A stretch of DNA of 64,000 bases from IMG/VR virus record IMGVR_UViG_3300032286_000710, positions 32,001 through 96,000 of that record. The stretch is one strand, 5' to 3'. Both the position numbers and the translations under genes were made by a program. Under the pieces are notes generated by a model. The model saw nothing but the letters and a program-made list of their open reading frames with translations, was not told where the DNA came from and made no database searches. This document shows, piece by piece, positions 13,920-32,027 of the stretch. This stretch comes from a virus. Numbering within the stretch: position 1 is the first letter of the stretch; the number at the start of each line of letters is the position of its first letter.

Positions 13920-14341
13920 GTATGAACGATTTTATAAACATGCTTAACGACGAACAAAAGCAAGCTTTGTTAAAGGCACTAGTTGGTGATAGTCCAACCG
14001 TAGCTAGTGTTCCAAAAGAAGTGAGAAAAGAAAGCATAAAGAAGATACAGTCTTCCACACCCCCTGCAAGTGTGAATGAAGATTTTACAATGTTTAAGCA
14101 GGATAGTAATTCTAATACTAATACTAGGAGAAAAGAAGCCGTGAGAGCTAGAAAGAATGAATGGAAAGATACGGGTGAGTCTAGGGATGTAGAAACTCCA
14201 CAGTTTGAAAGAACACCCCGTCGCCGTGAGCCATACAAAAAGGTAGAAGTAGAATGCCACGTTTGTGGAAAGTCTTTCAAGGAAGATCCCAAGATTATTC
14301 ATGGAGAATACTATCGTTGCAATAGATGCACCGGTAAATAA
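13916..14341 (+). CDS. Hypothetical protein with C-terminal zinc finger
   Basis: CHVCGK...CNRC. Confidence 0.6.
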   Translation: MSMNDFINMLNDEQKQALLKALVGDSPTVASVPKEVRKESIKKIQSSTPPASVNEDFTMFKQDSNSNTNTRRKEAVRARKNEWKDTGESRDVETPQFERTPRRREPYKKVEVECHVCGKSFKEDPKIIHGEYYRCNRCTGK

Positions 14342-14342
14342 T

Positions 14343-15809
14343 ATGGAAGTAACACTGACTGATATTGGATCAGAAAGAGCCGTTTTAGCTGGATTATTGC
14401 AGCACGGTATAGATGGATATGTAGCGGTATCTGACATAGTGAGTCAAGACACTTTCGGACATTTGAACAATCAAATATTGTTTAAGTGCATTGAAAAAGT
14501 TATTCTCAACGATCAGAAAGTAGACATACCATCCATATTATCCGCAGCAGATCAGTTAAATCTTTCTGAAAGTATAAATACAGATCAAGAGTTGAAGTAT
14601 ATAAAGTCTCTAATGGACTTCCCCATCAACAAAGATAATGTTTTTAGCTTTGCAATACAGATGAAGAAGTTTGAGTTTGCACGTAAAATAAAAGGTCTTA
14701 CTGCAAAGATTCATAAAGATGTAGATAGTGTTACTGGTGCTGAATCTATAAATGAGATTATACAAATACTTGAAAATCCAGTTACTGATTTCTTAAGGGA
14801 AGATGATAGCGGCGATCTTCCAGAAAAGATTGGCAAGGATGCTAAAGATTATATACAGTTTCTAGAAGAGAATAAATGTGATATCATAGGTATTCCAACG
14901 GGCTTCAATAAATATGATGAAGCAATTGGTGGCGGATTACGAAGGAAATGTGTTGATTTAGTATCAGCAAGACCAAAGGTTGGAAAAAGCGTATTCGCTG
15001 ATAATGTAGCATTAAATGTATCTTCCGGTGGCGTTCCAGTACTGATGTTAGATACTGAAATGAGTAAGGAAGATCACTTAAATAGACTATTGGCAAATAT
15101 CAGCGGAGTTCCAATTAATGAAGTTGCTACTGGTAAATTCACAGATGATGAAGAAAAACGACGCAAGGTGATGGAAGCAATCGAAAAGATTGAATCTATA
15201 CCTTACAGTTATGTTAGCGTTGCTGGAAAGCCGTTTGAACAAATACTTAACCTAATTAAGCGTTGGGTTATGCAAGAAGTCAGAATTGGCGACAATGGCA
15301 AGACAAACAACTGTCTTATCATATATGATTATCTTAAGTTAATGTCATCGACTTCTATTACTAATAATATACAAGAATACCAAGCACTTGGTTTTCAGAT
15401 TACATCACTACATAATCTTTGCGTCAAGCTTGACATACCATGTTTGTCCTTTGTACAATTGAACCGTGACGGCATAACAAAAGAAAGCACAGACGCTGTT
15501 TCTGGATCAGACAGATTGATTTGGTTATGTACATCATTTAGCATATTCAAAATCAAATCTCCAGAAGAACTAGCAGAAGATGGGCCAAATGCTGGAAACA
15601 GGAAGCTTGTACCGATTGTTTCAAGACATGGTGGAGGCTTGGACGATGGTGATTACATTAACATGGTAATGCAGGGATCTCACGCAAAGTTAAGAGAGCT
15701 GAAAACACGTAACGAATTTAAGAATCAGCCAGTTGGAGACACTGGCATGGTAGACCAGAACACATTAGATAAGCTAAAAATTAATGGACTTGCAGAAGAT
15801 CAAGAATAG
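14343..15809 (+). CDS. dnaB: DnaB-like replicative helicase
   Basis: SERAVLAGL, GIPTGF, ARPKVGKS, DTEMS, IYDYL, QLNR; probable start ATG 14343. Confidence 0.92.
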   Translation: MEVTLTDIGSERAVLAGLLQHGIDGYVAVSDIVSQDTFGHLNNQILFKCIEKVILNDQKVDIPSILSAADQLNLSESINTDQELKYIKSLMDFPINKDNVFSFAIQMKKFEFARKIKGLTAKIHKDVDSVTGAESINEIIQILENPVTDFLREDDSGDLPEKIGKDAKDYIQFLEENKCDIIGIPTGFNKYDEAIGGGLRRKCVDLVSARPKVGKSVFADNVALNVSSGGVPVLMLDTEMSKEDHLNRLLANISGVPINEVATGKFTDDEEKRRKVMEAIEKIESIPYSYVSVAGKPFEQILNLIKRWVMQEVRIGDNGKTNNCLIIYDYLKLMSSTSITNNIQEYQALGFQITSLHNLCVKLDIPCLSFVQLNRDGITKESTDAVSGSDRLIWLCTSFSIFKIKSPEELAEDGPNAGNRKLVPIVSRHGGGLDDGDYINMVMQGSHAKLRELKTRNEFKNQPVGDTGMVDQNTLDKLKINGLAEDQE

Positions 15810-20433: not shown

Positions 20434-21012
20434 ATGCCTTCTTTGAATAAAGATTTTATATTACAACTAAAAGATAACTATAAAAACTATAGTAATTTTA
20501 TAGAAACTGGTACATATATGGGTCAAACTATAATGGAAATGGAACCCATGTTTGAAAAATTATATACTATAGAAATTAAAGAAGATATTTATAATACTAC
20601 AAAAAATACTTATTCTGGAAACAAGATAGAATTTATACTTGGGGATAGTTCCACAGAATTAAAAAAGTTACTCCCCAAAATAATTGGTAAATCGTTAATT
20701 TTTTTAGATGGTCACTGGAGTGCTGGGGACACCGGAAAAGGTGTAAAAGATTGTCCACTAATAGAAGAAATTGATAGCATAAATTTATATCATAAAGATA
20801 AAGCAATTGTGATTATAGATGATGTTAGATTATTTGGCATGGGGCCAAACAAAAACAATGAAGTATGCAATTGGGAAGATATAGAAGTTAATAAAATACT
20901 AGATACTCTAAATAATAGGATAACAGATTATTATTATTTACCAAGTGAATTTTTTGAAAAAGACAGATTAGTATTACATATAACTGGAGAAAATTATGAA
21001 CAAAATAGATGA
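20434..21012 (+). CDS. Class I SAM-dependent methyltransferase-like protein
   Basis: [29 protein letters not shown]. Confidence 0.75.
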
Positions 21013-21523
21013 TCTTTTAGAACAGCAGTCACAAGCACAAGAAGTAGTAGTAGTTGGTTATTCTAGTGACCAAGTAATTGAATTACTAAAAAAATCTTTG
21101 AATATTCACTGGCAGCAGACAACTGTTTTAACTGCACAAGCAGAACATCTTGAACGATGGGGTTATAAGAAATTAGCAGCAGTTATTAAGGCAGATTCTA
21201 GACAAGAACAAGAACATGCTGCTATTAATATCAAAAGGCTTGAATTTTTTGATGCCGATTATCAACCATTAATAGTAAGTCCACCATCTTGGAAGAGGCA
21301 CGATATGGTGGCCATGATTGAATACAATCTTAATTCAGTCAGAGAAGCATCAGTCGCTGAAAGAAACACAATTGTTGCTGCTAGGGCGGTTGGAGATGAA
21401 ATTACTGCTAATATGATGATTCCATTATTACAGGGCAGTGAAGATGGAATTGAATTATATGAGGGCTATTTAAAGCTTATTGAAGAAATGGGTCTTGATA
21501 ACTTCTTGAGTATACAGGTTTAG
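20996..21523 (+). CDS. Bacterioferritin-like protein with degenerate ferroxidase centre
   Basis: WGYKKLA...EQEHA...KRL and C-terminal [11 protein letters not shown] match the Bfr pattern (WGLKRL..EMKHA..ERI; LIQKMGLQNYL). Confidence 0.8.
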
Positions 21524-21531
21524 TAGTTTTG

Positions 21532-21573
21532 CTTGGGGGTCATATTGACTTATGGCCCCCAAGATGGTATAAT
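21532..21573 (+). promoter_or_regulatory. Consensus sigma70 promoter (TTGACT-17bp-TGnTATAAT) embedded in a 13-bp inverted repeat
   Basis: -35 at 21545-21550 is the loop of CTTGGGGGTCATA/TATGGCCCCCAAG (21532-21563); -10 at 21568-21573. Confidence 0.8.
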
Positions 21574-21610
21574 AAGTTGTTGATCTCTTGATTTTGAAAT
21601 AAGGAAATAT

Positions 21611-23236
21611 ATGAATTGGTTCCCGTTGAAGAATTTTACTCATTATAGTTTGCTCAAGGGGTATTCCAAACCAGAAGAATTAGCAAAGAAATGCAAGGAT
21701 AATGGATATCCAGCATGTGGCATTTGTGATTATAAAACATTATCTGGTGCAGTTGCCTTCTATAAAGCTTGCAAGAAGCAAGGCATAAAGCCAATCATTG
21801 GATGCTCGTTTGATTTTGCTACACTTTTTGCCAAGAACAAAGATGGGTGGTACGAGTTAATTGAGATGGTTTCATCACTAGATGAAAATGGTAAGTTACC
21901 AGAGCAATATGACAATACAAATATCAGTAAAAATTTGATTAGTGTCTATAATGCTCCTACTGAATTAATGCCTATTAGTTATTATACAAATAGGGAAGAT
22001 GCCAAACTTCACAGAATATTATTATGTTCTGACATGAAGACTACGCTACCAAGAATAAAGAAGTGCATTAGGCCAGATAACAAGGGTGGTCTAAATATAG
22101 ATTCAAAATATCCAGAAGAGCATATGGATAAATTAGTATATTTTATGCAAGATTCTTTTTACGTCAAAGACAAGGATGAATCTAAGGGGTTAGACTCGTC
22201 TAAACTAAAAGAGATTTATGACCAGTGCGAAGACTATGATATTCTTAGCAAGCCAATGCTACCTAAATTTGAATGTCCAAAAGGGGCATCAGAAGAAGAT
22301 TATCTCAAAGAACTATGCCGTATTGGCTGGAAGAAAATACTAATAGATCAAAATAAGGTATCAAAAGAAGAAGATAAGCAGAAGTATTTGAGTAGATTCA
22401 AGGAAGAGTTTGATGTTATTAAAGATGCTAATCTATTCGGATATTTTCTTATTGTTCGTGATATTATAAAGCACGTTAATGATATGGGTTGGTTATCTGG
22501 TCCCGGTAGAGGATCTGCCGCAGGGTGTTTAATCTCATATTTAATTGGTATCACAAAGATTGACCCAATAGAGTTTGACCTTCTATTTGCACGATTTTAT
22601 AACGCTGGAAGAAATAGTGCTGATCATATATCTCTACCAGATATTGATATAGACGTTCCCGGTACTAAACGTGATGAAATTATCGCATATCTAAAGGATA
22701 AATATGGTCATAGTCGAGTCAGTCAAATGTTAACGTTTGGCAGACTTCAAGGCAAAAGTGCTATCAAAGAAGTCTTGCGTGTTAATGAGGCTTGTTCATT
22801 CTCTGAAATGAATGCTATAAGTAATTGTATTCCAGATGAAGCAAAGATTTCAGACCAGTTAGCAGAAATGGATGATGAAGATCGTTCTATTATTAAATGG
22901 GCATTAATCAACAACTCTGAGGATCTAAGAGATTTCTGTAGAATATCAGAAGATGGTAAACTTGAGGGTGAATACGCAGAATATTTTGAACAAGCTATTC
23001 AGATAGAGGGAACATTCAAAACTCAGGGAAAACACGCTGCCGGTGTAGTAATTTCAGCAGAGCCACTTCAAAAGGTATGCCCAATGGTAAAACAAAAAGG
23101 TTCATCAGAAAAGGTGGCTGGACTTGAAATGGCAGACTTAGAGGCATTAGGCCACGTAAAGTTTGACGTTCTAGGAATTAATTTGCTAGATAAAATTATG
23201 AAGATTGAAGAACTAACAGGAGTATCTAATGGCTAA
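21611..23236 (+). CDS. dnaE: DNA polymerase III alpha (DnaE) N-terminal part: degenerate PHP domain plus palm/thumb
   Basis: THYSLL, GPGRGSAAG, PDIDID, HAAGVVI, KFDVLG; stops shortly after KFDVLG. Confidence 0.92.
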   Translation: MNWFPLKNFTHYSLLKGYSKPEELAKKCKDNGYPACGICDYKTLSGAVAFYKACKKQGIKPIIGCSFDFATLFAKNKDGWYELIEMVSSLDENGKLPEQYDNTNISKNLISVYNAPTELMPISYYTNREDAKLHRILLCSDMKTTLPRIKKCIRPDNKGGLNIDSKYPEEHMDKLVYFMQDSFYVKDKDESKGLDSSKLKEIYDQCEDYDILSKPMLPKFECPKGASEEDYLKELCRIGWKKILIDQNKVSKEEDKQKYLSRFKEEFDVIKDANLFGYFLIVRDIIKHVNDMGWLSGPGRGSAAGCLISYLIGITKIDPIEFDLLFARFYNAGRNSADHISLPDIDIDVPGTKRDEIIAYLKDKYGHSRVSQMLTFGRLQGKSAIKEVLRVNEACSFSEMNAISNCIPDEAKISDQLAEMDDEDRSIIKWALINNSEDLRDFCRISEDGKLEGEYAEYFEQAIQIEGTFKTQGKHAAGVVISAEPLQKVCPMVKQKGSSEKVAGLEMADLEALGHVKFDVLGINLLDKIMKIEELTGVSNG

Positions 23237-23909
23237 TAGAGACTATATTATATTTGATTTTGAAACAGGATCACGTAATCCACACAAAACACAACCAACA
23301 CAAATTGCTGCTATTGCTTTAGATGGAAGAACATTGCAGATGAAGGGTCAATTCAATAGTGAAATCAAGCCTATTTTTGATGATGAAAAGGCTATAGCGG
23401 CTGGATTTGATCCTGTACAAGATGAAGCTTTAAAGATAACGAAGAAAACAAGAGAACAATTAGAATTAGCACCATCTTTAAAGTCTGTGTGGAATAAATT
23501 TACAAAATTTGTTGATCAGTACAATTGGAAGGGTGAACCATTTTTTAATCCTATCCCCGTTGGTTTTAATATAATTGGCTTTGATATGCACATTATACAT
23601 AGACTATGCAAGGAATTTGGACCTTGGGACAAAGAGAGAGAACAGCAAAAACTATTTAGTAGAGTCTATAAGATAGATATTATGGATAGTGTATTTGCTT
23701 GGACAGAAAGCGATCCAAGTGTTAGGTCTATAAGTATGGACTCATTACGCGAGAGAATGGGCTTGAGTTTTGATAATGCTCACGATGCTCTACAGGACGT
23801 TAAAGATGAGGCAAATATATTTATTAAGCTTATGAAGACTCATCGTGCGGTGTATCAGAACATGAATTTTGATAAGGCGTTTGCTGATGGAAATTTGTAT
23901 GTTAAATAA
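23229..23909 (+). CDS. DEDDh 3'-5' exonuclease (DnaQ/epsilon-like)
   Basis: ExoI DFETG, ExoII FNIIGFD, ExoIII HDALQD; AGGAG Shine-Dalgarno at 23218-23222. Confidence 0.9.
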   Translation: MANRDYIIFDFETGSRNPHKTQPTQIAAIALDGRTLQMKGQFNSEIKPIFDDEKAIAAGFDPVQDEALKITKKTREQLELAPSLKSVWNKFTKFVDQYNWKGEPFFNPIPVGFNIIGFDMHIIHRLCKEFGPWDKEREQQKLFSRVYKIDIMDSVFAWTESDPSVRSISMDSLRERMGLSFDNAHDALQDVKDEANIFIKLMKTHRAVYQNMNFDKAFADGNLYVK

Positions 23910-25470
23910 TTTAGACTATAATGATAAAGCAACTTGGCAACTGTTCGCAGAAGGCAAGACTAAGGGAATCTTTCAATTAGAAAGCAACCTTGGAAAATCA
24001 TGGTCTAAAAAATTAGCACCGACCAATATTGAAGAACTATCAGCACTAATTGCTATTATTAGGCCGGGAACCTTAAAAGCAATTGTTGATGGTAAAAGTA
24101 TGACACAGCATTACGTTGACCGTAAGCATGTTAGAGAAGAAGTAACATATCTTCATCCCGCATTAGAAGATATTTTAAAGCCAACATATGGCGTTCTTGT
24201 ATATCAAGAGCAGTCAATGCGTATAGCAGAAAAAATCGCTGGTTTTAATTTACAAGAGGCAGACGTTCTTCGTAAGGCTATTGGAAAGAAGAAAGCCGAT
24301 CTTATGAATGAAGTCAAAAAATCATTTATAGCGGGGGCAGAGCGTGTTGGAATCGTAAATAAGGAGAACGCGGAAGAAATCTTCGGATGGATTGAGAAAT
24401 CATCAAGATATGCATTCAATAAATCTCACAGTGTTTCATATGCTGTATGTTCTTATTGGAGTGCATATTTTAAGGCTCATAATACCAAGGAATTCTTTTT
24501 ATCTTATCTCTTTTATGCAAATGAAAAGCAAGATCCACATCAAGAAGTTTATGAATTGATATCTGAAGCTAAACTATTTGATATTGAGACAAGAACTCCA
24601 AGCTTAACGAACTTTGAAAGAAAGTTCAATATTAAACGTGGTAAGATATACTTTGGTATTAAAGATATAAAGTCACTAACTGGTGCAACCGGAGATAAGT
24701 TAATAGAGACTATAACTGAAGCAGAGAAGACTTTGAGTAAGCCAGTAAAGGAATTTACTTGGCTTGAAATTTTACTTTTTATAGGATCAAATATTAGCTC
24801 TACTGCATTCAAGGCTTTAGCTTCCATAGGATTCTTTAGGAATTTCAAAGGTAATGTTACTAGAAATAAAGCCCTTTATGATTATGAAATTTACAGAACT
24901 CTCACTAAAGCAGAACAAACTTGGATATTAAATCATTATAATGATAAAAAGTGGGATTCTTTTGTGGATTGTTTGAGAGATTTAGCACCAACTAAAAAAG
25001 AGGGCGGTGGAACTAGCAAAGCTGACAGGAAGCAGGCTATAGAAAATGAGATACAACTATTAGTAAGTCCACCATATGATCTAGAGGACGATCCAACTTG
25101 GATTATAGATCAAGAAGTTAAATTTTTAGGTTGTCCTGTTACAATGACAAAGGTGGAGACTTCTGATACGTCTGCCGCAAATACTACTTGCAAAGAAATA
25201 ATCAATGGCAAGAAGGGTAAGGATATGTGTATAGTAGCCAACATTCAAAGATTATCAGATTACACAATTAATAAGGGTGAATCTAAAGGTCAGGTAATGT
25301 CATTTCTAACAATAGAAGATGATACGTGCATACTTGATAGTGTTATAGTGTTCCCTAAGACCCGAGAAAAATATAAATATATTCTATATGAAGGAAACAA
25401 CTTAATTTTCTGTGGGTCAGTAAGTGATAAAGACACATCATTTATAGTAGATAAGATTCACGAAATTTAA
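23899..25470 (+). CDS. dnaE: DNA polymerase III alpha (DnaE) C-terminal part: fingers, HhH, OB fold
   Basis: GIFQLES, IRPG, YGVLVYQEQ, LRKAIGKK, YAFNKSH, MSFLTIED; start ATG 23899 (or 23887). Confidence 0.92.
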   Translation: MLNNLDYNDKATWQLFAEGKTKGIFQLESNLGKSWSKKLAPTNIEELSALIAIIRPGTLKAIVDGKSMTQHYVDRKHVREEVTYLHPALEDILKPTYGVLVYQEQSMRIAEKIAGFNLQEADVLRKAIGKKKADLMNEVKKSFIAGAERVGIVNKENAEEIFGWIEKSSRYAFNKSHSVSYAVCSYWSAYFKAHNTKEFFLSYLFYANEKQDPHQEVYELISEAKLFDIETRTPSLTNFERKFNIKRGKIYFGIKDIKSLTGATGDKLIETITEAEKTLSKPVKEFTWLEILLFIGSNISSTAFKALASIGFFRNFKGNVTRNKALYDYEIYRTLTKAEQTWILNHYNDKKWDSFVDCLRDLAPTKKEGGGTSKADRKQAIENEIQLLVSPPYDLEDDPTWIIDQEVKFLGCPVTMTKVETSDTSAANTTCKEIINGKKGKDMCIVANIQRLSDYTINKGESKGQVMSFLTIEDDTCILDSVIVFPKTREKYKYILYEGNNLIFCGSVSDKDTSFIVDKIHEI

Positions 25471-25473
25471 CGG

Positions 25474-25502
25474 TTGTTTTTTTAATCAGTCGCTGCTAAT
25501 AT
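25474..25502 (+). promoter_or_regulatory. Possible promoter TTGTTT-17bp-TGnTAATAT upstream of ssb and the glycan cluster
   Basis: Intergenic position, 17-bp spacer, extended -10; GAGGAG Shine-Dalgarno follows. Confidence 0.4.
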
Positions 25503-25522
25503 ATTAAGATGAGGAGACTAGA

Positions 25523-25834
25523 ATGAATATGTGTTCTTTTACGGGATACTTGGTTGAAAACCCAAGAATCTCTATGGTTGGAGATGTGGTTTTGGCGGAA
25601 TTTGTTATGGTGATATATACTTATCGCAAAACAAAAACCGGTGAAAAGAATAGAATTCCAACATATATACATTGTGAAGCTTGGCATACCGGTGCTGAGA
25701 CTTTAGAAAAGTATGCCACGCAAGGCACTAAGTTAGTTATTCATGCCTCTGCTAAAAATCCAGAAAAGGATAATGAAGATATTGTTTTTAGAATTAACGA
25801 GTTTGATTTCTGTCACAAGGACTTTGAAGACTGA
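25523..25834 (+). CDS. ssb: Single-stranded DNA-binding protein (short)
   Basis: MNMCSFTGYLVENP, TYIHCEAW, GTKLVI; acidic C-terminus DFED. Confidence 0.8.
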   Translation: MNMCSFTGYLVENPRISMVGDVVLAEFVMVIYTYRKTKTGEKNRIPTYIHCEAWHTGAETLEKYATQGTKLVIHASAKNPEKDNEDIVFRINEFDFCHKDFED

Positions 25835-27501
25835 TGAGAAAACCAAGAATATTATTTTGTAGCGAAGCTACGTTTTTAAATACTGGTTATGCAACATATA
25901 CCAGAGAAATATTAAACTATCTACACGGTACTGGAAAATACGAGATAGCTGAAATGGCTTCTTACGGAGAGCGTAATGACCCAAGAGCAAAAGATATACC
26001 TTGGAAATTCTACGGGGTAGTTCCAGACTCCACTTGTTCAGAAGAAGAAAAAAATCAATACTCACAGTATCCAACTGCACAATTTGGTGAAATGATTTTT
26101 GAGCATGTGTGTTTAGACTTTTTGCCAGATGTTGTTTGTGATATACGAGACTTTTGGATGTTGGATTTTGCTGAAAGATCACCATTTAGACCATATTTTA
26201 AATGGTGCATAATGCCAACAGTTGATGCTAGGCCACAGGCCAGACAGTGGGTTGCAACCTATAAATCAGCAGATGCCTGTTTAACATATTCAGAATGGGC
26301 TGGAGAAGTATTAAAACAACAGTCTGGTGATAAGATAAACTATATTGGCATTTCTCCACCGTCAGCACACGGTGCTTACCAACCCATAGAAGATAAGGCC
26401 GGGCTTAGAGCATCTATGGGAATTAATCCAGAGGCTAAAATCATTGGGACCGTCATGAGAAATCAGCGACGAAAATTATACCCAGATCTATTTCAAGCTT
26501 TTAGACTTTTGCTAGATAGCGTTGAAGACAATACTGATTATTATTTATATTGTCACACAAGTTATCCAGATTTGGGTTGGGATATTCCAGAGCTATTACA
26601 ACAATATCAATTATCATCTAAGGTATATTTTACATATATCTGTGGTCAAACTGGAAAACCGTTCCCATCGTTATTTAAGGGTGCTATTGCACAATCCCCT
26701 TACACTGGACAATTTGGGGCATCATTATCAAACGTAAAGCACGGCGTAGAATATGAAGACCTTTCCAAGATAATAAACTTATTTGATCTATATGTTCAGT
26801 ATGCTAACTGTGAAGGTTTTGGTCTGCCACAAGTAGAAGCCGCCGCATGTGGAGTACCAGTAATGGCTACAGATTATTCTGCTATGGAAAGCGTAGTAAG
26901 AAATCTAGGTGGTACTCCGCTCACTCCAAAAGCACTATATAAGGAACTTGAAACTGGTTGTTTTAGGGCGGTTCCAGACAATGTATTAGCAGCACAAAAG
27001 TTCAAAGAGTTTTTCGAACAACCAGCTAGTATAAGAAGAAGACTTGGATTTGATACTAGGCAAGCATTTTTAAAGCATTACCAATGGGATAAAAGTGGTA
27101 AAGCTTGGGAAAATTATTTTGATAGCATTGAAATATCAGAGACTTTTGATTCTTGGAGACAACCCTCTAGAATAAAAGAACCCCAACCAAAACCCGACAA
27201 GTTACCAGATAATGTTAGTCATCAAGATATATCTAGGTGGTTAATCTCAGAAGTTTTGTGTGAGCCAGAAAAGACAAATTCTTATATAGAATCTAGACTA
27301 GTAAGAGATTTAATGTATAGAAATTCCATGGCAACTACTGGCGGAATGTATTTCAATGAAAGTTCTGCTGTATTTGATGGGAAACAAACAAGAAACCCGT
27401 TTGATTTTGATATAGCGTATGATCAAATGGTAAATCTTTGCAATAGAAGAAATTTTTGGGAAAACAAGAGGCTTGAAATGTTGAAAGCTAGGGGCATGTA
27501 A
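25834..27501 (+). CDS. Glycosyltransferase family 4 (GT-B)
   Basis: TGYA, RNQRRK, EGFGLPQVEAAACGVPV. Confidence 0.88.
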   Translation: MRKPRILFCSEATFLNTGYATYTREILNYLHGTGKYEIAEMASYGERNDPRAKDIPWKFYGVVPDSTCSEEEKNQYSQYPTAQFGEMIFEHVCLDFLPDVVCDIRDFWMLDFAERSPFRPYFKWCIMPTVDARPQARQWVATYKSADACLTYSEWAGEVLKQQSGDKINYIGISPPSAHGAYQPIEDKAGLRASMGINPEAKIIGTVMRNQRRKLYPDLFQAFRLLLDSVEDNTDYYLYCHTSYPDLGWDIPELLQQYQLSSKVYFTYICGQTGKPFPSLFKGAIAQSPYTGQFGASLSNVKHGVEYEDLSKIINLFDLYVQYANCEGFGLPQVEAAACGVPVMATDYSAMESVVRNLGGTPLTPKALYKELETGCFRAVPDNVLAAQKFKEFFEQPASIRRRLGFDTRQAFLKHYQWDKSGKAWENYFDSIEISETFDSWRQPSRIKEPQPKPDKLPDNVSHQDISRWLISEVLCEPEKTNSYIESRLVRDLMYRNSMATTGGMYFNESSAVFDGKQTRNPFDFDIAYDQMVNLCNRRNFWENKRLEMLKARGM

Positions 27502-28145
27502 TGTATAATGCACAAACATATCAAGATCTTTTTGTAAACAAGTTATTAGATATAGACAATGGATATTTTGTTGATATAGGTGCTGGAACCGGCGGATTAC
27601 CACTATATAGCCCCGGTTTTTATAGTAATACATATTTTTTTGAGAGTCGTGGCTGGCGGGGAATAGCAATAGATTACGATCAGAATTATATAAAATCAGT
27701 AGAGGGTTTTAGAAAAGCAAAATGTATTCTTGCTGATTTAAACTTTGTAAATATAAATACAATATTGGAGTCTAATAATTGCCCAGAAGAAATAGACTAT
27801 CTATCTATGGACGTAGATGATGTTCAATTCAAAGTGTTTAATGATTTCAATTTTGAAAAATATAAGTTCAAGGTGCTAACACTAGAGCATAATCTATTTC
27901 AGTCATTTTCAGAGTGTAACCAAGATCATACAGTAGAATATAAAAATAAAATAGTAAAAGAATACAAAGAATATAGATCAAAATTGCAAGACTTGGGCTA
28001 TAAAATACTTTGGGGCAATATTATATTAGATGGTTACGGACCAGTGGAAGATTGGTATGTAAATCAAGACATATATGAGAAATATAAATATTTAGAAGCA
28101 GAAAACATAAATTGTAAAGAGGTAATAAATGCTATTTTTAGATGA
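27501..28145 (+). CDS. FkbM-like methyltransferase
   Basis: FVDIGAG, SNTYFFE..GWRGI, IDYLSMDVD, TLEHN. Confidence 0.8.
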   Translation: MYNAQTYQDLFVNKLLDIDNGYFVDIGAGTGGLPLYSPGFYSNTYFFESRGWRGIAIDYDQNYIKSVEGFRKAKCILADLNFVNINTILESNNCPEEIDYLSMDVDDVQFKVFNDFNFEKYKFKVLTLEHNLFQSFSECNQDHTVEYKNKIVKEYKEYRSKLQDLGYKILWGNIILDGYGPVEDWYVNQDIYEKYKYLEAENINCKEVINAIFR

Positions 28146-31321: not shown

Positions 31322-32027
31322 ACAAACCAGTTGTAAAAACTGTATATTTGCTATCTATGAAGATAACACACAGGTTGGGTGTGAAGATAATAGGGTTTCC
31401 AAATTTGGGGATTTAGTTATAGAAGCCTATGATGATTCAAAAGAGTTTTATGTAATAAACAGGCTATGTAATCTCTATAGAAATATTAAGTGGAATGATG
31501 GAATAAAAGACGTATCCAAAGCTAAGAAAGAGTCTTGCCTGAGTTTTGACGTATTAATAGATTGTGACGATATAAATGATCAGTATAGGAATAAAATCAT
31601 AGAAGAGATTAGCAAGTTAGACTATCCTAAAGAAAAATGCGTAATATCTCTTTTTCAATCTTATACTTGCGATAAGACCCAAAGAGAAGAAGCGATAGGT
31701 ATTCATGCCCATCATCCTACTACTAATTTATCGGTTTACTTCGACAGGACAGATTACATACATTCATTCCTATCAAAATCTAGGAATTCATTTCATTTAA
31801 TATTGAATAAAAACAACATAGATAATTTTTCTAATTTTATCATCAGTGTTGACAAATTAGTGAATGATGATCTAAAAAGATTTATTTTGTGTAAGGGTGA
31901 CAATAAGCTTACAATATCTAATACAGCCTGTAGAATTATATATCAAAATTTATATTCAGAATATGAAAATAATGTTGCTATTATGATAGAAGATGCTAAA
32001 AAGGAAAATTTATATATTGAGCTTTAA
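31293..32027 (+). CDS. Hypothetical protein: Cys-rich N-terminus plus degenerate GT2-like region
   Basis: CKNC..C..C; SKLDYPKEK resembles GT2 N-terminal LDYP motif. Confidence 0.45.
   Translation: MNYMPPDPTKQTSCKNCIFAIYEDNTQVGCEDNRVSKFGDLVIEAYDDSKEFYVINRLCNLYRNIKWNDGIKDVSKAKKESCLSFDVLIDCDDINDQYRNKIIEEISKLDYPKEKCVISLFQSYTCDKTQREEAIGIHAHHPTTNLSVYFDRTDYIHSFLSKSRNSFHLILNKNNIDNFSNFIISVDKLVNDDLKRFILCKGDNKLTISNTACRIIYQNLYSEYENNVAIMIEDAKKENLYIEL

Follow-up and report, generated by a model that had tools for sequence, protein, structure and literature searches.

To our knowledge, the C-family DNA polymerases that replicate all bacterial chromosomes have been studied only as single alpha chains or as chains ligated by inteins. 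A locus in an uncultured freshwater phage raises the question of how such an enzyme could operate in separate pieces. The locus lies in a stretch of 64,000 nucleotides, hereafter the window, which covers positions 32,001 to 96,000 of the IMG/VR record IMGVR_UViG_3300032286_000710, a complete virus record of 166,604 bp that has direct terminal repeats. In this window dnaE, the gene for DNA polymerase III (Pol III) alpha, is divided into two open reading frames (ORFs), and a complete gene for a DEDDh (DnaQ-like) 3'-5' exonuclease, here called exo, lies between the N-terminal half (N) and the C-terminal half (C). By every sequence criterion this feature is real, conserved and functional. We propose that N, exo and C probably constitute the phage's own replicase core as a non-covalent complex of three proteins. 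This is the best reading of the locus because the split is free of inteins and introns, nothing of DnaE is missing, exo is complete, the genes are under selection, and the arrangement is conserved as a unit.

The break in dnaE and the gene that fills it

The three genes lie on the plus strand. The N half (21611-23236, 541 aa) comprises a degenerate and shortened PHP domain (Pfam PHP, 3e-20, 73.6 bits, profile positions 6-122 of 164), the palm and the thumb. Its Pfam DNA_pol3_alpha domain is complete (1e-68, 232 bits), and its PDIDID and KFDVLG motifs, which hold the three catalytic aspartates, align with the catalytic motifs of the Taq and Escherichia coli alpha subunits. The C half (23899-25470, 523 aa from a conserved ATG) carries the fingers (Pfam DNA_pol3_finger, 1e-48, 165 bits), a weakly matching HhH region (HHH_6) and an OB-like C-terminus. 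Both halves score below the 1002-bit equivalog cut-off of NCBIfam PRK05673 (N, 340 bits; C, 280 bits), which places them, on sequence, in a divergent phage DnaE lineage.

An earlier note on this DNA, the original prediction, described dnaE as two ORFs, the first ending after KFDVLG and the second starting near FQLES, with a complete DEDDh exonuclease gene that has its own AGGAG and overlaps both halves. The ORFs agree with this description: N ends 19 residues after KFDVLG, and FQLES lies near the start of C. The exo gene (23229-23909, 226 aa) starts at an ATG preceded by 6 nt by an AGGAG ribosome-binding site (23218-23222, plus strand, visible in the sequence itself) that falls within the terminal part of N, and the N-half stop codon (23234-23236) overlaps exo by 8 nt. 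The C half was previously taken to start at a TTG (23869). We assign its start instead to the conserved ATG at 23899 (MLNNLDYNDK), which leaves an 11-nt overlap with the end of exo, because the residues upstream are unconserved and relatives bearing inserts at this point begin at M(D/E)YNDK.

The break falls in the variable linker between palm and fingers, after KFDVLG, which contains the third catalytic aspartate and is the last palm element, and before FQLES, the first finger helix. In E. coli DnaE, motifs of these two types are joined by a short linker. The N and C pieces abut at positions 617|621 of phrog_405 and 569|584 of PRK05673, where the C half spans 584-1051 of 1146. The N half aligns to E. 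coli alpha up to residue 564 and to Taq alpha up to residue 628, and the C half aligns to E. coli residues 591-852 (weakly to 1010-1059) and to Taq from 647. Since the halves abut on every full-length reference, the earlier claim that little or nothing is missing from DnaE is upheld.

No element that could rejoin the halves was detected. A Pfam search found no Hint or intein domain in N, exo or C, and no Rfam family of any kind matches positions 21000-26000 at E<=1. The interval between the halves is filled wholly by the conserved coding gene. Only about 7 residues of N lie beyond its alignment to continuous relatives, and C starts about 4 residues ahead of DYNDK; with tails this short there is no room for an intein. 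The split is thus free of both inteins and introns, as originally proposed.

The product of exo has a complete Pfam RNase_T domain (1.4e-14; 55 bits, cut-off 24) and, at 3e-23, a match to phrog_192, 'DNA polymerase exonuclease subunit'. Its residues D10, E12, D119, H185 and D190, the DEDDh set of motifs Exo I, II and III, are invariant in sets of 71 and 24 sequences. A single-chain AF2 model (pLDDT 88.5) gives Foldseek probabilities of 1.00 against 8h18 (DnaQ domain), 1fxx (ExoI), 2p1j (PolC exonuclease) and RNase T. Residues 212-226 (window positions 23862-23906) are of low pLDDT and include a conserved KF(D/E)KAFA peptide, which is kept also in locus L077, where exo overlaps no C half. By analogy with E. 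coli epsilon, which is tethered through a flexible C-terminal segment (PMC2528190, PMC3664792), this is a candidate docking peptide for the polymerase or a clamp.

The complete phage genome contains one DnaE and one RNase_T match, which is exo, and no PolA, PolB or other DEDDh exonuclease was found in it. The split enzyme is therefore the only recognisable replicase that the phage encodes.

Conservation of the arrangement and traffic at its junctions

A search with exo as query yielded 73 IMG/VR loci at 59-98% identity, all of which have the order N-exo-C and the same N stop. With protein P0123 as query the order was found in 21 of 23 loci, the exceptions being L077 and L078; L099 is cut before exo. 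The order holds at greater distances as well: it is present in L100, found with P0248, whose N is only about 39% identical to that of the window, and in the deep lineages L102-L107 (found via P0163) and L112-L114 (via P0128). In all, related phage genomes share the break point and gene order in about 95 independent viral contigs, a recurrence that takes the arrangement far beyond chance.

Protein libraries give the same picture. In a library clustered at 90% identity, N has matches of 68-96% identity in more than 120 clusters, with proteins of about 540 aa. In an exhaustive 50%-identity library, 138 of the best 150 matches (39-68% identical) consist of N only and end within 25 residues of the break, and seven are continuous N+C chains with no exo between. 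An exonuclease domain occurs in none of these best 150 representatives, and neither they nor a search for longer proteins yielded the in-frame N-exo-C fusions that had been suggested as a place to look. The single match of the longer-protein search, P0121, in which 239 unrelated residues precede residues 36-226 of exo, is encoded on a 1.8-kb contig and is probably a chimera. Another protein, P0231 (762 aa), consists of an N half ending at the usual break followed by an unrelated C-terminal domain of about 155 aa.

The ratios of nonsynonymous to synonymous substitution (dN/dS) measured against the window are 0.083 for N, 0.046 for exo and about 0.065 for C, with properly aligned C pairs at 0.01-0.10. 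On these values all three genes are under strong purifying selection. Seven C-half pairs with ratios of about 1 or more are artefacts, in which an in-frame stop in the tblastn match shifted the codon register. Close relatives whose dnaE runs on across the junction do exist, with exo moved upstream, but the split halves are not under relaxed selection; the combination of the two, which the original prediction named as a refutation, was thus not observed.

Among cultured phages there is no blastn relative of the region, and tblastn with exo finds seven phages at 26% identity, in which exo and dnaE are about 15 kb apart or unrelated. In bacterial and archaeal genomes exo matches only six contigs of metagenome-assembled genomes (MAGs) from unrelated phyla; as these are probably mis-binned phage DNA, they give no clue to the host. 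Such MAG contigs with exo at 54-70% identity are L117 (VFHP01000007.1) from a SAR202 MAG, on a contig of 152,655 bp, the size of a whole phage genome and probably mis-binned, and L118-L120 from Flavobacteriales MAGs.

Homing-type nucleases and accessory genes make both junctions hot spots of insertion. The N|exo junction holds a gene in 23 of 73 loci and the exo|C junction in 42 of 68; 49 of 68 loci have extra genes at one or both junctions, and 19 of 68 are tight at both, as the window is. The homing-type inserts encode Endonuclease VII-like (28 loci), HNH_3, HNH plus HTH, and TnsA-like proteins, and the accessory inserts encode FkbM methyltransferases and a GT34-like glycosyltransferase. The same overlapping start and stop contexts at exo serve again in most inserts. 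The largest separation is found in L105 and L107, where about 3.8 kb with some nine unrelated genes, one of them on the opposite strand, lies between exo and C (L105:8817-12625). These genes include cytidylyltransferase-like, YopX and glyoxalase-like fragments as well as the minus-strand ORF, and a 77-aa ORF lies between N and exo. Among relatives, the three genes differ freely in relative frame and in spacing, and the gaps can hold entire genes; a conserved frameshift, translational bypass or cis-splicing is therefore excluded. The idea that translational coupling fixes the stoichiometry does not hold as a conserved requirement, given the inserts in 49 of 68 loci and the 3.8-kb gap of L105 and L107.

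A sister group shows a different layout. In L077, L078 and the group of P0123, P0124 and P0155, exo lies just upstream of a dnaE that is continuous across palm and fingers (with a 4-nt overlap in L077, L077:6312-11687), and in L077 and L078 the surrounding synteny, from helicase to SSB to GT4, is that of the window. Because exo adjoins a continuous dnaE in this syntenic group, the linkage of exo to dnaE is older or stronger than its nested position. In the trees from both FastTree and IQ-TREE the continuous forms emerge at three points among the split ones, and the best trees need 3 changes. As a single continuous clade is not rejected by the approximately unbiased (AU) test (p = 0.22), we claim neither repeated re-fusion nor an ancestral split.

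Inteins do occur in these relatives, at other sites, and serve as positive controls for intein detection. L077 and L078 have a split intein with a NUMOD3/DUF559 (Vsr-like) endonuclease ORF at position ~174 of the C profile. Contiguous inteins interrupt the C half of L091, the PHP domain of P0142, the palm of P0157 (with a LAGLIDADG domain) and the C part of P0269. In L035, L064 and L045 a split intein of textbook form divides the N half at GPGRG|SAAG (...GPGRG-CFLPDT... / ...GVHN-SAAG...; L035:2581-5345), and a 291-aa DUF7487/TnsA-like endonuclease ORF lies between the pieces. The palm/fingers break of L035, 0.7 kb downstream of this intein, is bare. The L035 phage consequently has DnaE in three pieces plus exo, and P0125 and P0143 are the corresponding separate proteins. 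In L035 and L064 a methyltransferase gene (L035:5338-5991) sits between N and exo; an FkbM-like methyltransferase encoded in a glycan cluster of the window (27501-28145) is 43% identical to its product (E 2e-54). Judged by sequence similarity, accessory methyltransferases move between sites in this phage group.

A proposed three-chain replicase and its rivals

We envisage the enzyme as follows. N would supply the palm active site with its three aspartates, the thumb and the PHP remnant; the fingers, the duplex-binding HhH module and the OB domain would come from C. Palm and fingers would meet at their native interface and so re-form a Pol III alpha-like enzyme non-covalently, a route suggested by the position of the cut in a variable surface linker and by the lack of any added docking sequence. 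Proofreading would fall to the DEDDh protein, in the manner of E. coli epsilon, with the conserved, flexible peptide at its C-terminus as the probable tether. A single promoter would transcribe the three genes of this phage, which would be translated from overlapping frames. Several observations weigh against this proposal. The phage is uncultured; no beta-clamp match (PF02768) was found in the complete genome; and exo remains below every curated epsilon equivalog cut-off (best 27 bits against 236). Because no such cut-off is reached, the label of proofreader rests on fold, catalytic residues and linkage, and exo is best classed, by these scores, as a distinct DEDDh lineage outside the curated epsilon equivalogs.

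A three-protein enzyme need not owe its gene order to adaptation. The order could be a historical accident of mobile-DNA traffic, in which a homing endonuclease or a similar element cut dnaE at a tolerant linker, the neighbouring exo ended up inside, and the junctions have since behaved as ordinary intergenic landing sites. The frequent occupation of both junctions by nucleases and cargo genes fits this course, as do exo upstream of a continuous junction in the syntenic L077 and L078, the unrelated genes between exo and C in L105 and L107, and the splitting of phage DnaE at other sites in Cellulophaga phage phi13:1 and Bacillus phage Jayan. The window, however, has no endonuclease at either junction, accident alone would not lead one to expect N-exo-C to persist over so deep a divergence, and the trees are compatible with either direction of change between split and continuous forms. 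We regard the accident as a credible account of the gene order, though one that falls somewhat short of being probable. It is doubtful, in turn, that the fission is adaptive in the strong sense. Under that hypothesis exo would be indispensable as a third structural subunit, docking on N and assisting the recruitment of C, the compact N-exo-C order would be a co-translational assembly line, and the two intein-free junctions would also be safe landing pads for homing-endonuclease-driven exchange of polymerase modules between co-infecting phages. Were it true, the arrangement would represent a distinct, phage-specific architecture of a C-family replicase.

Readings that dispense with a non-covalent enzyme fare worse. 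Phage polymerase genes often carry introns and inteins, and the three frames of the window shift by +1 at each of the two junctions, so that the halves might be joined covalently by an unrecognised, atypical mini-intein, by RNA splicing, by translational bypass or by a programmed frameshift. This explanation is largely refuted by the short tails, by the lack of any Hint or Rfam match, by the variable frames and spacing with whole genes, one of them on the opposite strand, between the pieces, and by the absence of a fused product from the best 150 representatives and from the longer-protein search; we consider it extremely improbable. It is likewise very unlikely that the halves are decaying remnants, or have acquired new separate functions, while a host polymerase replicates the phage. 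The degenerate, shortened PHP domain of the window's subclade and the failure to find a clamp would suit such a history, but dN/dS is 0.05-0.08 on all three genes, every catalytic aspartate and the finger motifs are kept, conservation extends over hundreds of clusters, and DnaB and SSB genes lie in the same module. That indels from sequencing or assembly created false stops has a negligible probability and is already refuted by replication across assemblies, as the same break recurs in the roughly 95 contigs, which come from many samples and were assembled independently, and in each of them the intervening gene is full length.

The closest functional analogue of the proposed complex is the E. 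coli alpha-epsilon core. Like the phage system, the E. coli Pol III core (alpha, epsilon and theta) combines a C-family polymerase, an inactive PHP domain and a separate DEDDh exonuclease, but its alpha is one chain and dnaQ is unlinked to dnaE, whereas here there are two chains with exo in the break. PolC of Firmicutes also has a DEDDh exonuclease nested in a C-family polymerase gene, in that case as an in-frame domain inside the PHP domain of one polypeptide rather than as a separate ORF at the palm/fingers linker. Cyanobacterial split DnaE is rejoined by a split intein. A survey of fractured genes with split inteins includes three DnaE loci (Dassa et al. 2009, PMC2677866). Such cases share with the window a dnaE in two ORFs, and L077 and L035 carry breaks of this type at other sites; they differ in that the palm/fingers break described here has no intein halves, and its products hence would remain unligated.

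In gene structure the nearest analogues are 'genes in pieces', namely split gp43 of Aeromonas phages 25 and 44RR and split NrdA of phage Aeh1. There, too, an essential replication enzyme is encoded in two intein-free ORFs, whose products reassemble, and free-standing homing endonuclease genes occupy the break in some relatives (PMC2988022). The split gp43A/B (PolB) of Aeromonas phage 25 co-purifies and polymerises, and the mobE-split NrdA of Aeh1 is active (PMC2988022). The differences are that gp43 belongs to family B and not C, that the element intervening in gp43 and NrdA is a selfish endonuclease or an untranslated spacer and not the enzyme's own partner subunit, and that split DnaE spans a very large phage clade. 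Two further systems are more distant. In group 2.2 jumbo phages a minimal Pol III alpha catalytic module is encoded as two proteins that are predicted to reconstitute the enzyme (Iyer et al. 2021, PMC7824862). That module is a core that lacks a PHP domain, fingers-to-OB architecture and a linked exonuclease; its genes lie far apart, and it occurs alongside a PolB. The enzyme considered here has full-length architecture and is the only polymerase. DnaE is annotated as two ORFs also in Cellulophaga phi13:1 (gp038/gp039) and Bacillus phage Jayan, but there the break is in the palm/thumb region, near N residue 410-430, and the pieces are not separated by an exonuclease gene. Searches of open-access full text turned up no account of a full-length DnaE whose palm/fingers cut contains an exonuclease gene. 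The arrangement is, in these terms, an intein-free 'gene in pieces' applied to a C-family replicase, with a putative proofreader nested in the break.

A large and abundant group of aquatic phages thus appears to run Pol III alpha as two unlinked polypeptides, with the proofreader gene in the cut. If assembly is confirmed, these phages provide a Pol III alpha that is in two pieces by nature, in which communication between palm and fingers and the tethering of the exonuclease could be dissected, and they would be a natural case of a replicase complemented from separate proteins without an intein. Within this one family bare breaks stand side by side with split-intein breaks and contiguous inteins, and it therefore bears on how mobile elements fracture and re-fuse essential genes. 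There is also a consequence for annotation: 'DNA polymerase III alpha' and 'PHP domain protein' are the routine labels of these halves, which could pass for pseudogenes.

The PHP domain, the promoter and neighbouring genes

The original prediction attributed to this DnaE a short PHP domain without metal ligands, probably unable to proofread, and the shortness and the loss of ligands are apparent from both alignment and length. In a HMMER alignment the Taq alpha ligand positions H, H, D, H and E read K7, F9, K16, Y41 and S66 in the window, and the domain fails the first five positions of the rule for active PHP domains, HHDHEH[C/H]DH (PMC12926913). It is about 90 aa shorter than that of most relatives. 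The ligands and these ~90 residues are missing from the window, P0122, P0126 and P0132, whereas the pattern HxH...D...DH...E is kept in basal split forms, in the L077 group and partly in L100. PHP decay is thus, by these alignments, specific to some subclades. The proposal that it explains the arrangement fails, since the basal split lineages and the L077 group keep the ligands and carry exo too; loss of PHP proofreading cannot be the reason for exo. Decay of the PHP domain is more likely a consequence of having exo.

A promoter-like site lies upstream of N on the plus strand (21545-21573; TTGACT, a 17-nt spacer and TG-TATAAT). With an 11/12 match and an extended -10 it is the best sigma-70-like site in 21300-26000, a region in which the total number of such sites is not above that in shuffled sequences. 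No terminator-like site was found on the plus strand before 25858, and hence none before the end of C.

The replication module is headed by a gene for a DnaB-type helicase (14265-15809; PF03796, 2e-25). Directly 3' of the C half is an SSB gene (25523-25834, plus strand; Pfam SSB, 4.7e-7), part of the same syntenic module. The order helicase, three ORFs, dnaE module, SSB and GT4 is conserved in L077, L085 and L100. A ferritin-like gene (20996-21523; Pfam Ferritin, 5e-12) lies directly upstream of the dnaE promoter in the window and is absent from that place in the same three loci.

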